Origin: Candidatus Latescibacterota bacterium
GTDB lineage: Bacteria; Latescibacterota; UBA2968; UBA8231
Length of the DNA: 64,000 nt
Direction of reading: 5' to 3'
Assembly: GCA_965248355.1 (NCBI GenBank)
Contig: OZ252098.1
Coordinates: 4,320,001-4,384,000, forward strand
This document shows, piece by piece, positions 18,253-59,056 of this stretch (positions are counted from its first letter, which is position 1; every line of letters begins with the position of its first letter). The notes below the pieces were generated by a model. That model saw only the letters and a list, made by a program, of their open reading frames with translations, did not search any database and was not told the DNA's origin. A program made the translations under genes and the position numbers.

Positions 18253-18282
18253 TTGACGGAATCGAAACACCTTGTCTATCTT
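18253..18282 (+). promoter_or_regulatory. Putative sigma70 promoter for the H1-like/SWIB gene
   Basis: TTGACG (18253-18258), N18, TATCTT (18277-18282) in an AT-rich intergenic region. Confidence 0.55.
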
Positions 18283-18444
18283 TGCACGAATTGTATTCGT
18301 GTGGGTCCTTTGGGAACAAGGGGAACGAGGTAGCGCGGCCCATGGAGTGATCCGCCGCGACCCCTCAGGGTTGGCGACACTCTTTCAGAAACAACGACGA
18401 GCGAGGCGGCCGTCCCGCTCATCGCGCCCATAAGGAGAAAGCAG

Positions 18445-18954
18445 ATGGCGAAGCGCAAGGCCACAAAGAAGAAGGCGACCAAACGCAAGGCCGCACCGAA
18501 GAAGGCGGCCAAGAAGAAGGCGGCCAAGAAGAAGGCGGCCAGGAAGGTCGCCAAGAAGAAGGTCGCGAAGAAGAAGGTCGCCAAGAAGGCGGTGGCGAAG
18601 AGGGCGGTGACGAAGAAGGCCGCGAAGAAGAAGGCCTCCAAGAAGAAGGCTGCAAAAAAGAAAGCTGCAAAAAAGAAAGCTGCAAAAAAAAAAGGCGCTA
18701 AGAGGAAACCGAATCCCGCGTTCATGAGACCGCTGACTCCCGATGCAGCTCTGGGTGCCGTGGTGGGCACCAAGGCGCTGCCCCGGACGGAGGTCGTGAA
18801 GAAGCTCTGGTCCTACATCAAGAGGAACAACCTCCAGGACACCGAGAACAAGCGGATGATCAATGCCGACGACAAGCTTCGCGATCTCTTCGGCGGCAAG
18901 GATCAGGTCAGCATGTTCGAGATGACCAAGCTCGTCAGCCAGCATCTCGGCTGA
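18445..18954 (+). CDS. Lys/Ala-rich histone H1-like tail fused to a SWIB/MDM2 domain
   Basis: About 85 aa of KKKAA/KKKVA pentapeptides, then PNPAFM...LPRTEVVKKLWSYIKRNNLQD..NKRMINADDKL...VSMFEMTKLVSQHL. SD AAGGAG upstream. Confidence 0.92.
   Translation: MAKRKATKKKATKRKAAPKKAAKKKAAKKKAARKVAKKKVAKKKVAKKAVAKRAVTKKAAKKKASKKKAAKKKAAKKKAAKKKGAKRKPNPAFMRPLTPDAALGAVVGTKALPRTEVVKKLWSYIKRNNLQDTENKRMINADDKLRDLFGGKDQVSMFEMTKLVSQHLG
18649..18693 (+). repeat. Three tandem 15-bp A-rich repeats ending in an A10 tract
   Basis: GCTGCAAAAAAGAAA twice, then GCTGCAAAAAAAAAA. Confidence 0.9.
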
Positions 18955-18989
18955 CCGTCGGTCACCGAAACCAGACAACCCTCCGATGG

Positions 18990-19030
18990 AGAAGAGGAGC
19001 TCCCGACCCCGGGGGCTCCTCTTCTTGTTT
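18990..19030 (+). terminator. Intrinsic terminator after the SWIB gene
   Basis: 16-bp stem AGAAGAGGAGCTCCCG / CGGGGGCTCCTCTTCT (one G-U pair), 4-nt loop, followed by TGTTT. Confidence 0.8.
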
Positions 19031-19093
19031 CCATCGCGATCGATCGGCAGTCCCATGGGGGCATCCGCTTCCCTTCCCCCGTATATTCATCCC

Positions 19094-53820: not shown

Positions 53821-54474
53821 ATGGCAGGAAGACAGTGTTTCATCTCGCTGCTTTGGATCCTGTGGTTGACGGTGCCCTCGAGAGCAGAGGACGAGCCCAC
53901 AGTCACGGTAGTGCCGGGGCACAACCTCGTTCCGGTCATTGCGACCGACCTGCGATTCCACAGAGACTCCCTGTCGGTGTCGATCGACGATGCCTTCCAG
54001 CCTGTTGGCGCCGTGTCAGTCGAGATCGTTCGCCTTCGAGGACCGGGGGCTTCCGTAGAGACCAAGCTCGTCGTCGACATTCCGAGTGACCCCTTCATCA
54101 CTTCCTTCGAGCTACCCTTGAGAGTCGTCAGTAGCCGCGGAAGCAGCTGGCCGGTCACCTTGCACGTAGAGATCGTGGACGGCGCGCCCAGATCGAGCGA
54201 ATTGCTCGGCGTCTATCCCAATCCCTTCAATCCGGAGACCGAGATCCGGTATTTCATCGGCGGGCAGGACCCAATTGAGGCCAGGCTGTCCATCTACAAC
54301 ATGGTCGGGCAGAGAGTGCGGACCCTGTTGGAGCAGAGCGGCACACCGGGGGTGCACTCCGTCGTCTGGGACGGGACGGACGACCACGGCGGGCGCCTGG
54401 GCGCAGGTGTCTATGAGTGCCAATTGGTGGCTGGGCCGCATGTGACCACGCGCCCGATGTTGCTGCTGAAGTAG
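53821..54474 (+). CDS. Small secreted protein with FlgD_ig/sorting domain
   Basis: Signal peptide (..VPSRA|EDE), beta-rich segment, YPNPFNPET...IYNMVGQRVRTL...WDG..GAGVY...MLLLK. Confidence 0.8.
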   Translation: MAGRQCFISLLWILWLTVPSRAEDEPTVTVVPGHNLVPVIATDLRFHRDSLSVSIDDAFQPVGAVSVEIVRLRGPGASVETKLVVDIPSDPFITSFELPLRVVSSRGSSWPVTLHVEIVDGAPRSSELLGVYPNPFNPETEIRYFIGGQDPIEARLSIYNMVGQRVRTLLEQSGTPGVHSVVWDGTDDHGGRLGAGVYECQLVAGPHVTTRPMLLLK

Positions 54475-54484
54475 AGATGCCAAG

Positions 54485-55111
54485 ATGGGTGGAGCCCTGC
54501 ACAGACTTGCTGGATGCAGCGTACCCTCGATTCTGCTGACGGTCAGCGTTGTCTGTGGACAAGACGTGACCGTGCAGACGTCAAGCGACGGCGTGGTGCT
54601 CATCGAGATACGTGACCCGGAGCCGTTGTCGGACGAGGACCGGCTTGCCCTTGTGGACGAGCTGTGGGATCAAGGGGAAGCAGAGCGGGCAAGGGGCCTG
54701 CTGTCTGAGCTTCGCGCAGAGGAGGGCGCCCAGATCAGGGGGCAGGTCCTGTACAGGACCGGGCTCTTCGAGCTACAGGCAGGGCGGCCGCATGGCGCCG
54801 AGAGCGCATGGCGAGAGGGTGCCGCCGCCGAGCAAGACGCGGAGGGGGCTGGCTGGTCAGCCTACGGCCTGGCCTGGTTTGAGGCGGGCCGGGGAAAGGC
54901 CCGGGAGGCCTTGGAGCTGTTGGACAGGATTGTGACGAGCGGTGTCAGCGATGTCGAGCTGTTGGCTTGGTCCTATTTTCAACTCGGCCGTGTGCATGAG
55001 CAGATGTTGCGAGATCCGACGAGTGCACAAGTCTACTTCGACAAGGTCATGCAGCTGTATCCGGAGTCGGTTCCCGGTCAGCGCGGCTGCTGGCAGAGAG
55101 TCGCCCCTTGA
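54485..55111 (+). CDS. Secreted tetratricopeptide-repeat protein
   Basis: Hydrophobic N-terminus; TPR-like helices VLYRTG, SAYGLAW, SYFQLG and YFDKVMQLYP. Confidence 0.7.
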   Translation: MGGALHRLAGCSVPSILLTVSVVCGQDVTVQTSSDGVVLIEIRDPEPLSDEDRLALVDELWDQGEAERARGLLSELRAEEGAQIRGQVLYRTGLFELQAGRPHGAESAWREGAAAEQDAEGAGWSAYGLAWFEAGRGKAREALELLDRIVTSGVSDVELLAWSYFQLGRVHEQMLRDPTSAQVYFDKVMQLYPESVPGQRGCWQRVAP

Positions 55112-56223
55112 CTGTTCTCTGCAGTACACTTGGGAGGCCGTCGATCAATCGTAGAGCAGTCCTGCTACTGGGTGTTGTCGCAACCGTGCTCTCCTGGCAG
55201 GCCGCCGTTGCCAATCCGCCCTACACGGTGTCAGTGGTGGAGATCAAGTTCAACCACAACACGGGCAGTGAGACGGCGGACGGCGTGACGATCAAGACGA
55301 GCGGGGGCAGCACGATCACCTCGCCGGAGTGGACATCCGGTGGCTCCAACAAGCCGGTGGTGTATACGAAGGGCAGTAGCAAGACGATCAAGGTCAAGTT
55401 CAGTTGTACCGAAGATGACGCGCAGGACGTGGCGATCTGGGCAACGAAGACGGGCGGTGACCGTCTTGGCAGTCTCGCAGAGCAGTCGGTTGACTTCACG
55501 GATGGTTACTCTGGACCCGTATCGTATACGATACCGTCGAGCAGCGTGCCCACGGCGGTGAAGAAGAAGGGCACGGTGGAGTGGACGTGGAAGTTCCGGT
55601 ATCCGATCAACCTGACGGCAGAGATCGGCACCACCGGTCCGCATACGATCTACACGACATACGGCGCACCGGTGTCTCCTGAACCGGATCCCCGAGTAAA
55701 CATCGTAGAGTATGCCACTGATTGGGCGGACGGGAAGAGCACGACAAGTACGATTGCGGTAGCGATGATCCAGGGTGTATCGCAGAACTACAAGTACGAC
55801 GGTATCAACTGCATGAGATTGGCTAGTGACTATGTGCGCCTAGTTGGGAGTACGGGAGTCAACAACTGGCTACATTGCTGGGCAGGTATTCCTGACTTGG
55901 ACAGGGAGGTCGGGGATATGTTCTGGCAGGAGACGAGAGTGGTAGATCCAATCGGGCCGGGGAGTGCCAAGAAGTTTGATTTCAGGTACCATGTCTGGGC
56001 CGAGGCCGGCAACAAACAGCGTGATCCGAGTTTCGGGCTATCTCGTGTCGGTTCATGGGGGGGGCACGAGGACTGGCTATTCACGCGGTACCAAAGGTGG
56101 GATGACTTGACATGGCTCGACAATCAGTCTGGACAGAGTTCGGGAGTGGAGGACTACCAGGCTGAGAAGTGCATATACAAGATGATCGCTAACCCCGCAG
56201 TCTGGTTCGGTCCAAATCTTTGA
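55108..56223 (+). CDS. Secreted protein with Ig-like N-terminus and transglutaminase-like C-terminal domain
   Basis: Signal peptide ending AVA; INCMRLA (Cys), FRYHVWAE (His) and RDPSFG (Asp). Confidence 0.65.
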   Translation: MTVLCSTLGRPSINRRAVLLLGVVATVLSWQAAVANPPYTVSVVEIKFNHNTGSETADGVTIKTSGGSTITSPEWTSGGSNKPVVYTKGSSKTIKVKFSCTEDDAQDVAIWATKTGGDRLGSLAEQSVDFTDGYSGPVSYTIPSSSVPTAVKKKGTVEWTWKFRYPINLTAEIGTTGPHTIYTTYGAPVSPEPDPRVNIVEYATDWADGKSTTSTIAVAMIQGVSQNYKYDGINCMRLASDYVRLVGSTGVNNWLHCWAGIPDLDREVGDMFWQETRVVDPIGPGSAKKFDFRYHVWAEAGNKQRDPSFGLSRVGSWGGHEDWLFTRYQRWDDLTWLDNQSGQSSGVEDYQAEKCIYKMIANPAVWFGPNL

Positions 56224-56242
56224 GAACTGAGGAGATGAGTTA

Positions 56243-57355
56243 TTGACAGATCTTGGTGTTAGATCGATCTTGCTGTTTGTTCCGTCCGTGTTGCTAGCTG
56301 ATGGTGCTGGCACAAGGTGGGACGTGGCCATGATCGAGCAGGCCGACACCTGGGGGCAACTAATACGGAACTATGGTAGTCGGACGCATCCGGATTACTG
56401 GCAAGAGCAGAGACCGATTCTGGAGCAGCTCGCAATGGAACCAGGATCCGAGTGGGCGGATGAGGCAATGATCTGCCTAGCATGCGGACTGGCAGACTTT
56501 GAAGGGGATCTGGATAGCGGCATTGAACTGCTGCGCAGCGGCATAGAGCGCTTCAACAACGAACAGACGGTGATAGAGTCCTGGAATTTCGGGAGGGGAT
56601 GTGAGTTCGATTATGTGTGGATGCTGCACGCAAGCCTGTTGGTTGCCTTTGATGGCGCGAAAATCGACACAAGCAAACCGCTGGACTGGAACGGCTTGGA
56701 GGATCAAGACCGTGAGATCCTGGCCTACCACGAGCATCTCGGGGCGTTTCCAATACTCGCGAGATTGAAGGCGCGACGGATCCTGGCACAGATGTATGCC
56801 CGAGCCGGTCAGACGGATGCGGCTGTTGCCGAGCTGGAGTCCATGATCGCGGAGAACGGACCAGCCGACATAGCCGCACTGGTGGCGAAAGACAAGGAAG
56901 CGGCTGCTGGGCCTCATGGCTACCTCATAAGGCACCTGCCAATCTTCGAATACTCGCCAATCTGGCGCGCCGAGTATGATCCTTACCTCGAACTGGCAAG
57001 GATGCACCAGAAGGCGGGGAGTACAGCGGCAGCGGCCGATGTGTTCAGCAGGCTGGTCTCCGCTATCAGTCCCGACGGTTGGTATTGGCATCAAAACAGG
57101 CGACTCGGAGATATGTACGCCGAATTGGAGAGGTGGCCACAGGCGTTGGCGCAGTACGAGATCGCTGTTGATGGGATTCTCTGGTCCATCCGGGACTGGT
57201 CGAGTCGACGCGAGGAGCTGGCTGTCCTGGGGGAAGTGTCACTGCCCGACGGGGCGGAGTCCTGGGAAGAGGTGGCGAGAGGGTCAGATGTCTATGGCAT
57301 AAGTCTCGAGAGGATGCAAGCCAGAGCCGCGGAGGCGCGATCCAAGGGCCCTTAG
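56243..57355 (+). CDS. TPR-like helical protein, probably exported
   Basis: GAGGAG SD 8 nt before TTG; hydrophobic N-terminus; LAQMY..GQ..AA, LARMH, LGDMYAE..W..AL..YE. Confidence 0.65.
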   Translation: MTDLGVRSILLFVPSVLLADGAGTRWDVAMIEQADTWGQLIRNYGSRTHPDYWQEQRPILEQLAMEPGSEWADEAMICLACGLADFEGDLDSGIELLRSGIERFNNEQTVIESWNFGRGCEFDYVWMLHASLLVAFDGAKIDTSKPLDWNGLEDQDREILAYHEHLGAFPILARLKARRILAQMYARAGQTDAAVAELESMIAENGPADIAALVAKDKEAAAGPHGYLIRHLPIFEYSPIWRAEYDPYLELARMHQKAGSTAAAADVFSRLVSAISPDGWYWHQNRRLGDMYAELERWPQALAQYEIAVDGILWSIRDWSSRREELAVLGEVSLPDGAESWEEVARGSDVYGISLERMQARAAEARSKGP

Positions 57356-57398
57356 CTACCTCCGTAGCCTTCGTGGAGGGGAAGGCTACGGAGGCGGC
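57355..57398. repeat. REP-like inverted repeat
   Basis: CCTCCGTAGCCTTC-N8-GAAGGCTACGGAGG, a 14-bp perfect stem extendable to 18 bp with one G-U pair and one mismatch. Confidence 0.8.
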
Positions 57399-57681
57399 AC
57401 CGCTGACCTTCCAGTTGAAGCAGAACCAACCCAATCCCTTCAACGGCACGACTTGGATCGACTACTACGTCCCTGCCGGGGGTGCGGTGCAGGTGGAGGT
57501 CTTCAACACGTTGGGCCAGCTGCAGGCACGGCTGGTGAATCAGCACCGCCAGGCGGGGTGGCACAGCGTCGCGTGGGCGGGGGAGAGCCATGGTGGACAC
57601 CCACTCGCCTCGGGCACCTATGTCTACGTCCTGACGGCTCCCGGTGTGCGCCTGGCCCGGCCGATGACGCTGGTGAAGTAG
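57373..57681 (+). pseudogene. Orphan FlgD_ig/sorting domain (gene fragment or mini-gene)
   Basis: FQLKQNQPNPFN...VFNTLGQ...VAWAG..LASGTYVY...MTLVK; no signal peptide; the ORF-track start lies in the hairpin loop. Confidence 0.65.
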
Positions 57682-57692
57682 CCCGAAGGAGT

Positions 57693-59056
57693 GCTCAGCA
57701 GCTCCCGGGGCGGTTCGGGCTCGACGCCGGCGAGCACGAAGCCGTCCTCCGTGGTCTCGACGCTGGCGTGCCAGCTCTCCTGACCCTGGTCGAGGGAGGG
57801 GCGCTTGCCCTCGGCGAGCCAGTTGAGCAGCCACAGGTGGCCGGGGGGTCGCGGCTGCGCCAGACCGAGGCCAGCAGCGGCCACAGGTGCTCGCGCCAGC
57901 CGCCGGACTCGAAGGCGGCAAAGCCGCTGCTGTCGCCGTACCCGACCTCGCTGCGCAGGTTGTCGGTGGTGATCGCCGCGAGCCGGCAGAGATCGGCCAC
58001 GGGACCTCCGTCCAGGAATCGGTAGTCGCCGCGGGCCAGCAGGTAGTCGTTGGTGTGGCGCGGCGTGAGCCAGACGTAGCCGACGCCGGCGTCATCGTTG
58101 GGCTTGTACCCGGAGGCCTGGCCTTCGAAGATGCGCTCCACGCGCCGGGCCGCGGCCTCGAACTCGGTGATGCCGTGGCGGCGGGAGAGGTAGTCGTGCC
58201 CCGCCGCCAGGTTGAGGCCGACGAAGGTCACGTGGTTCTGGCGCGGCAGGCCGTCGGGATTGACCTCTTCCCTCAGGTAGAACAAGCCGGCCAGCTGCCG
58301 CAGCAGCTCGACGAGCATCTCCACCACCGCCTCCCGGTGGGCGGGCTCGTAGACCGGGTCGTCCTCGACCAGCTCCCACAGGTGGATGAACTGGTCGAGG
58401 TGGAAGAAGTCGTGATACTCCTCGGGATCACGGAGGCGCTGCTCGCGCCAGGGCTGGATGGAGCCGGCGAAGATGGCCGCCACCAGCCGGCCCCAGGACT
58501 CGTGGCCGCTCAGGTAGTGATTCCAGAGATAGGACTTCAGCCGGCCGCCCCGGAAGGGGGAGGCCACCCAGCCGCCGTCCCAGAGGGCCAGGTCGCGGCG
58601 CACGAGCTCGTCGAGCTCGGAGTCGGCCGGCGGCTCGGGAAGGCCCGGCAGGCGGCGGGCGGAGACGCGGCGAGGAAGGCCGCCGGCGGCCTCGACGATG
58701 CGGATCAGCTCCGCCACCGCGGCGTCCAGTCCGGCCTCGCTGCTGGCCCCGGCCACGACGGCGCCGGGACCGTGTCCGAGAGGATCGCGGATCGAGGTCA
58801 GGAGATAGTGGTCGCCGCCCGGAAACAGGGTGTCGACGAAACAGCGCCGGGCGTTGTAGAGCCAGGCCACGGCGGCGTTGTTCGCCATGTTGCCGCAGGC
58901 GATGACGCGGTGGCCGCGGAAGAGGGCCTGGTCGAAGGCGTTGTGCGGAAGGAGCGGAGCGCCGCAGGCGTCGGCCAGCCGGCGCGCCAGCGGTGCCTCC
59001 TCCCAGCCGTCCGGCACGACGACGACGGTGGGGTCCGATGGAGCGGTGACGTTCAT
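57693..59056 (-). pseudogene. Truncated, frameshifted paralog of the 50159-53584 gene (N-terminal ~450 codons)
   Basis: Aligns to about 52190-53530; +2 frameshift in a C run near 57843-57848; homology stops at EPPRELL next to the island end. Confidence 0.88.

Follow-up and report, generated by a model that had tools for sequence, protein, structure and literature searches.

The window, by which we mean the whole 64,000-nucleotide stretch of DNA that was analysed, belongs to a Latescibacterota genome made of one 5.5-Mb contig with a GC content of 68.9%. Between a proC-like gene on the opposite strand and a carA-like gene, it carries a small gene, hereafter tail-SWIB, in which a Lys/Ala-rich tail is fused to a SWIB domain (Table 1). 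The tail is a very basic, low-complexity repeat like those of bacterial histone-H1-like proteins, a likeness that a test of its composition bears out. The Pfam match of the SWIB domain reaches 103.6 bits for a gathering score of 25, the solved chain closest to it is yeast Uaf30 (E 9.5e-14), and the gene is the sole SWIB match in its genome. Elsewhere in the window, the GC content drops to ~61% with a strong positive GC skew at positions 54001-58000, possibly a foreign island, and the genome also holds three very long G/C runs (16, 28 and 37 bases) that are perhaps assembly artefacts.

Table 1. Features of the tail-SWIB gene and its transcription unit, in window positions.
Feature	Position	Strand	Remarks
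tail-SWIB gene	18445..18954	+	169 aa, 18.6 kDa, pI ~11.3
sigma-70-type promoter, TTGACG - 18 nt - TATCTT	18253..18282	+	same -35/-10 layout 5' of nearly all orthologs
5' leader, inferred start	18289..18444	+	RBS AAGGAG at 18432-18437
Lys/Ala-rich histone-H1-like tail, 83 codons	18445..18693	+	55% K+R, 31% A, zero acidic residues, 15-nt repeats
3.5-copy recent duplication of 15-nt unit, 94% match	18643..18694	+	source of both A_AAA_AAG heptamers; heptamers not conserved
A_AAA_AAG heptamers, in frame	18654-18660 and 18669-18675	+	
A10 run, predicted slippage site	18684..18693	+	last base of an Ala codon, then AAA AAA AAA
-1-frame TAA	18699..18701	+	end of predicted +1A product, 85 aa, 9.3 kDa
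+1-frame TGA	18725..18727	+	end of predicted -1A/+2A products, 93/94 aa, also basic
SWIB/MDM2 domain, PF02201, aa 96-168	18730..18948	+	E 4.6e-30
terminator-like hairpin	18985..19035	+	z -6.9; 0/200 shuffles as good

The gene is transcribed. In each of two metatranscriptome runs, one contig of a 98%-identical strain spans ~18305-18988, its depth climbing in the bin from 18288 and its 3' end falling at 18978-18988. Contig depth is a coarse measure, but because it reaches 129-146 on tail-SWIB versus ~4-12 on pieces of the neighbouring genes, the mRNA is likely monocistronic and strongly expressed. The leader gave no significant match in an Rfam search and folds no better than shuffled sequences (z -0.83). 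Seven orthologous leaders (L004, L009, L021, L023, L028, L029 and L039) carry GGAGGTGATC, which resembles a complete Shine-Dalgarno complement that is followed by no start codon; in several of them a later GATCACC could pair with GGAGGTGATC, possibly as a conserved leader hairpin or a ribosome decoy. The window's own leader keeps only a remnant of this element, in the 18345 region.

At the end of the tail, codon usage changes abruptly. The original prediction had pointed out that lysine is written AAG in 32 of 33 cases over the first 68 codons and AAA in 7 of 9 over codons 69-83; this count and its coordinates check out, as do the positions given for both heptamers (from 18654 and 18669), the A10 run and the two shifted-frame stops. 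This stretch of A stands out against the genome, which has just two A/T runs of at least 9, the A10 being the longest. Among 3340 likely coding ORFs, chosen by length and a GC3 filter, AAA makes up 7.1% of the Lys codons, a single KKK triplet out of 34 is encoded by AAA-AAA-AAA, namely the one in tail-SWIB, and two of the three in-frame A_AAA_AAG heptamers sit in the same gene. The TAA that closes the -1 frame is the product of a rare Ala codon, GCT (3.6% of Ala codons), preceding AAG. Transcripts with an unchanged run or with three more A's would thus encode the fusion, one more A would give an 85-aa protein of 9.3 kDa free of acidic residues, and two more or one fewer would give proteins of 94 and 93 aa.

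The run is not an assembly error, since orthologs in independent assemblies share it and the two RNA contigs cross it. These contigs read A10 with no indel listed and, as contigs collapse minor variants, this makes A10 the majority form in that strain's RNA. In RNA run X16, a joint with one extra A lies within a repeat at 85% likeness and is not assignable to a locus. Runs of eight A's occur mostly in mobile elements of this genome: in IS3-type (11 copies of the site) and IS630-type (4 copies) elements, of which the ORF overlaps at G000 C1 86020 (L233) and 1009233 (L234) are examples, overlapping ORFs are joined at A8 runs.

To place the run in evolution, we compared orthologs across the family. 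A SWIB match is present in 68 of 76 family genomes; with this query none appeared in 92 searched genomes of other families in the phylum. The main ortholog was parsed in 66 genomes (two of them cut by contig ends), leaving out a degenerate copy (G018), an unparsable one (G063) and second copies. An A9-11 run just before the linker, with a stop one or two codons on, is found in 18 of these 66, spread over seven genera: all nine informative genomes of g1, three of g17, two of g6 and one each of g2, g8, g12 and g15. In the remaining parsed orthologs, the longest A run is at most 8. Fifteen of the 18 genomes have a run of exactly 10; the others have 9 or 11, always in frame. In an RpoB tree built by a quick search on 30 genomes, the 13 run-bearing genomes included form one clade (SH-aLRT 95). 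The run-bearing clade is thus of single origin and, because of this, the 18 genomes and the gene loss that correlates with the run count as one evolutionary event. Several genomes of g17 (G025, G035 and G061) hold 5-7 SWIB-like matches each versus one in most relatives, and in one second SWIB copy (L060, in G007) the domain is followed by what we take to be a DnaJ-type domain with an HPD motif.

Since this single origin, synonymous sites have drifted widely. Among eight clade representatives, fourfold sites of the SWIB domain differ by 29-86% and none of 10 fourfold columns is invariant; throughout the clade, AAA occupies 9 of 114 positions in SWIB Lys columns and encodes 0 of 141 upstream KKK triplets in threefold form, and the Lys codon after the run is AAG in 53 of 72 cases. 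When synonymous codons were shuffled in 17 of the genes, a run of nine A's arose at the same site with a probability of 0.001-0.058 per gene. The original prediction would have been refuted by orthologs that use AAG here, in which case the run would be a recent repeat expansion or a homopolymer error; in fact the A-rich run and its close stop are kept in 18 of 18 clade members, across independent assemblies.

Everywhere else, such runs seem to be avoided. In the run-less tails of the family, A9 is found in 0 of 44 where synonymous shuffling predicts 5.7. A second lineage of tail-SWIB genes, from kin of records titled Zixibacteria (with which Ignavibacteriales-titled records group in relative searches), has A9 in 1 of 74 tails versus 26 expected and threefold AAA in 0 of 408 KKK triplets. 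As the observed counts fall far below expectation in the run-less tails of both lineages, runs of at least nine A's are, by these sequence counts, purged from the gene family save at one site in one clade. A pattern scan of GTDB returned 25 loci, including four from the Zixibacteria-kin lineage and a few others with A9-10, which raised the idea that the run had spread to other phyla. The data do not establish such a spread, the A9-10 runs there being sporadic and the unbiased sample of 74 tails holding a single A9. Five tail-SWIB genes outside the family (L076, L078, L085, L087 and L088) combine such a sporadic A9-10 with a close stop, through independent origins or by chance. Searches for the tail itself have limited reach: the low-complexity tail used as a protein query missed even known tails, and a start-anchored pattern matched only 2 of 18 known genes.

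The stop is as constant as the run. It lies one or two codons downstream in 18 of 18 genes, where GCT, GGT or AGT before AAG or AGG yields TAA or TAG; the stop of L021 belongs to the templated frame. For 17 of the 18 genes, the nearest stop falls in the -1 frame, and the other shifted frame of the in-frame orthologs closes within 4-15 codons. Farther upstream in these genes, a comparable stop follows a Lys run in only 17 of 194 cases. In run-less genes, however, a -1-frame stop follows 18 of 83 junction-proximal Lys runs and 198 of 495 of those lying more upstream; because it is so frequent there, the stop alone is weak evidence in lower-GC genomes and is informative mainly in high-GC members. 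The genes thus combine the features of a Thermus dnaX-type site: a coding run of at least nine A's, kept despite synonymous drift, with near stops in both shifted frames (18 of 18).

What kind of signal could this be? A_AAA_AAG is the site of the -1 frameshift of E. coli dnaX, and the original prediction had proposed it, side by side with slippage on the A10, as the element that splits the protein. The heptamer part of this dual hypothesis does not hold: the heptamers arose when a 15-nt unit was recently triplicated, the first of them is missing from a near-identical strain, and among the 17 other run-bearing genes just 2 contain this heptamer at all, at sites far upstream, so that it lies near the junction only in the window gene (A_AAA_AAA does lie within the run). 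The overlap between the +1-frame TGA and the in-frame ATG at 18724 also fails as a signal, being forced by the following Lys/Arg codon, and most orthologs never reach this TGA. What fits is the half that invoked transcriptional slippage at A10 as in Thermus.

Structure around the run offers little more. The absence of a stimulatory hairpin downstream, already remarked in the original prediction, is borne out by folding in the window (z +0.49), and no common fold was found across the 18 orthologs. Upstream, a hairpin of -8 kcal/mol or below ends at the run in 7 of 18 genes versus 13% of 248 KKK sites in run-less genes. In these seven orthologs (L007, L008, L011, L012, L013, L022 and L027), the hairpin has 6-7 bp, with paired changes in L012 and L013, and might stimulate slippage. 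Still, no universal stimulator was found and the window's subclade has no hairpin upstream of the run; because of this, and because Ala codons readily form such stems, the upstream hairpin is only a candidate stimulator.

If the short product matters, what provides it in relatives that lack the run? Each of the 10 run-less genera carries a dedicated free H1-like gene, which was found in none of the 18 run-bearing genomes. In g3, g5, g7, g9, g11, g14, g16 and g18, it sits at the nadE locus (some copies cut by contig ends, one frameshifted); in g13, it lies directly 5' of tail-SWIB (4 of 4 genomes with upstream DNA), and in g10, a free H1-like gene of 33 aa is found elsewhere in the genome. Counted within 1.5 kb of nadE, the free gene occurs in 8 of 13 run-less versus 0 of 17 run-bearing genomes. 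Two g14 genomes (G096 and G084) have neither run nor free gene. A whole-genome scan of the window's genome revealed no other Lys/Ala-repeat ORF, and in the 18 run-bearing genomes, 17 of which gave matches, a genome-wide repeat pattern retrieved nothing but tails belonging to other proteins, plus two fragments at contig ends that carry the leader of the SWIB gene. Several of the genomes are incomplete, and the pattern is to be read as one evolutionary event and not as a statistical series. The predicted slip product matches the stand-alone proteins (39-57% K+R, 31-46% A) in size and make-up. Because all 10 run-less genera carry the free gene and the 18 run-bearing genomes do without it, slippage likely replaced a lost stand-alone gene.

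Several observations surround this exchange. The nadE interval of the window's genome holds an IS3 copy and a HipA-like toxin-antitoxin module (L323 900-4400; G000 C1 2250400-2253900) instead of the free H1-like gene that relatives carry there. The stand-alone gene of G017 (L235 1420-1842) shifts frame inside its repeat, probably through an assembly error, since its congeners are intact. In the second lineage, 5 of 74 loci (L102, L103, L104, L107 and L108) place one or two tiny free Lys-rich genes, of 23-29 aa, directly before tail-SWIB. Many other proteins of the family also bear Lys/Ala tails (L295, L296, L298, L299, L301, L302 and L270); some of these resemble Ku, topoisomerase I C-termini and a phasin-like protein.

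Metagenomes add variants of the gene in which the default frame itself has changed. A scan that required the run and the SWIB start, and left the stop free, recovered 28 loci, partly redundant with the genomes. An A10-11 run is present in 22 of them, 18 in frame and 4 split. Among the in-frame loci, 17 of 18 stop at most two codons after a +1A change and the eighteenth stops at once after -1A. In L208, L221 and the genome locus L021, three assemblies ~97% alike, the A10 is kept and the tail ORF stops two codons later (TAA, TAA and TGA), so that the fusion needs -1A or +2A; in L202 and L214, from one organism in one assembly, the A10 is kept and the fusion needs +1A. What splits these loci is the gain or loss of a G next to the run, not a change in its length, and the linker is still coding in the SWIB frame. 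Because A10 is kept even where tail and SWIB no longer share a frame, in one direction or the other, slippage by RNA polymerase is favoured over a -1 ribosomal frameshift, which cannot yield SWIB in the L021/L208/L221 group. Indeed, the survival of A10 in three frame settings would suit a polymerase whose transcripts vary stepwise in run length. The split groups are shallow (97% identity; one organism), and for this reason they could also reflect recent SWIB loss or gene damage; L021 and L221 differ by four synonymous and five non-synonymous codons. One further locus (L203, run at 331) has an A18 run, an out-of-frame tail and A-rich changes nearby, from an assembly error or a runaway run.

To explain these results, we propose that RNA polymerase slips at the A10 run, so that one gene gives rise to both a tail-SWIB fusion and a free H1-like protein; we consider this probable. 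Transcripts with A10 (or A13) would be translated into the 169-aa fusion, those one A longer would meet the stop two codons later and release the 85-aa Lys/Ala protein, and those with +2A or -1A would yield 93-94-aa basic proteins. The model starts from the conserved run and stop, the avoidance of runs elsewhere, the frame-split relatives, the complementary distribution of run and free gene, and transcription of the locus; slippage, the choice of polymerase over ribosome, the product ratio and the DNA-packing role are what it would add. Two genes were likely present in the ancestor of the family: a tail-SWIB without the run and, next to nadE, a free-standing H1-like gene; the clade would then have gained the slip site once and, likely, lost the stand-alone gene. 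By analogy with known proteins, the free H1-like protein likely packs DNA. Such slippage has precedents, bacterial RNA polymerase being described, in the sections considered, as slipping efficiently on 9 A or T (PMC5009743, PMC1088944). Against the model, the E. coli enzyme slips less on A than on T runs (PMC6260861, in the part considered), and the collapsed RNA contigs read A10. Whichever machine shifts, the site is conserved and likely a functional recoding site with two products, to judge from its conservation, and on the same grounds the original idea that one gene makes a free tail (85 aa, 9.3 kDa) next to the fusion (169 aa, 18.6 kDa) is likely correct.

A different machine could do the same work. 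The ribosome might shift by -1 on A_AAA_AAA or slide on the poly(A) of a uniform mRNA, and both the conservation of the site and the evidence for gene replacement fit this equally well. Seventeen of the 18 genes do have their tightest stop in the -1 frame, the RNA contigs show A10 alone, and the IS3- and IS630-type elements of the host join their ORFs at A8 runs. Against it, three split loci would need a +1 or -2 shift, the conserved feature is run length and not the A_AAA_AAG heptamer, and no downstream structure was found. Biochemistry cuts both ways: on A11, the run length of two genomes, robust sliding is described for E. coli ribosomes, with much truncated product, but on A9-A10 these ribosomes make little, sliding in vitro being scant (PMC4363877, in the sections considered). 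We therefore regard the ribosomal route as unlikely. The run could also be a damper of dosage or a pause site before SWIB, with stops that merely limit the damage of slips and short proteins that are waste. If the TAA were missing, reading in the -1 frame would append 134 junk residues, so the stop is useful with or without a programmed slip; iterated AAA lowers output (PMC4363877, in the same sections), and certain g14 genomes get by with no free H1-like gene. Such a damper leaves unexplained why the whole run-bearing clade lacks the stand-alone gene when all 10 other genera have it, as well as the loci whose default product is the free tail, and we find it quite improbable.

Slippage might instead occur in the DNA, toggling cells between fusion and free tail by phase variation, as the original prediction had also considered. 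Out-of-frame assemblies exist, including the A18 locus L203, but run lengths cluster at 10 (15 of 18 genomes, the 9 and 11 of the rest all in frame), split loci differ by a G beside the run and not by its length, and ~6 raw DNA reads over the run, a very shallow coverage, list no indel. This makes phase variation very improbable. Lastly, homopolymers can erase interruptions by slippage, so that a chance A run inherited from one ancestor could have lingered as a neutral leftover, in keeping with the single origin. Given how strongly synonymous sites have diverged, and that A runs are purged elsewhere in the gene family, this is scarcely to be expected. Damping, phase variation and chance are improbable even when taken together.

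Returning to slippage by RNA polymerase, we lean on balance towards an even broader reading, in which a chromatin protein pair is set by transcriptional recoding: two nucleoid genes would have merged, the slip would fix the ratio of their products, the stand-alone gene would have been lost, and descendants would have flipped the default frame, the ratio being tuned by single bases beside the run. If true, this would be the first such case among bacterial chromatin proteins. To our knowledge, only a handful of non-mobile bacterial genes make two proteins by recoding. The A10 site lies within an ORF that looks intact and would always pass unnoticed in annotation, and recoding sites of the truncation type are described as hard to find by comparative genomics (PMC1088944, in the part considered). 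A literature search, with most subscription journals outside its scope, found no paper joining SWIB with transcriptional slippage or Latescibacterota with SWIB, and no SWIB or H1-like protein together with recoding among the matches listed; the part considered of a 2016 recoding review and the 2013 GeneTack paper, one supplementary file aside, make no mention of SWIB. The family also displays an evolutionary series, from two separate genes to tandem genes, one slippery gene and frame-flipped versions, which allows tests of how recoding arises and replaces a gene, and it offers an entry point to the SWIB and H1-like nucleoid proteins of bacteria, which are poorly understood.

How does tail-SWIB compare with known systems? 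Like E. coli dnaX, the window gene has in-frame A_AAA_AAG, here in two copies, from which a -1 shift would run into the TAA that also closes the predicted +1A product; unlike in E. coli dnaX, the heptamers are not conserved, no hairpin lies downstream, and the split relatives need shifts in both directions. In E. coli copA, a ribosomal -1 shift reportedly produces a chaperone, CopA(Z), and a transporter from one gene, the N-terminal part being freed, as in tail-SWIB, by a frame change and an immediate stop; here, however, the signal is a bare A10 run and the function is different. The nearest relative in mechanism would be dnaX of Thermus thermophilus, where slippage with near stops in both shifted frames makes about half of the product short (PMC5009743, PMC1088944) and for which A10 split-ORF versions are described (PMC5009743, PMC1088944, PMC3711429), each in the sections considered. 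Both genes have A9-10 inside one ORF, a long product in the templated frame, a short slipped product, and relatives split at A10. Tail-SWIB differs in that it is likely a nucleoid protein and not a clamp loader, in that its slippage is a prediction, and in that sister lineages encode a counterpart of its short product as a separate gene. As to function, plant plastid SWIB-4, in which an H1 motif adjoins SWIB, binds DNA and compacts nucleoids (PMC4154389), Waddlia Wcw_0377 binds along the genome (PMC6426960), and Hc2 is an example of a free protein with Lys/Ala repeats (PMC2848022), again according to the parts considered. From SWIB-4 and Wcw_0377, we infer that the tail and the fusion likely pack DNA. 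Like tail-SWIB, these proteins and chlamydial CT460 and Hc1/Hc2 have SWIB, H1-like Lys/Ala content or both, and the portions of the literature examined do not report recoding for any of them. In Chlamydia, SWIB and H1-like proteins are encoded by separate genes, whereas here both forms likely come from one.
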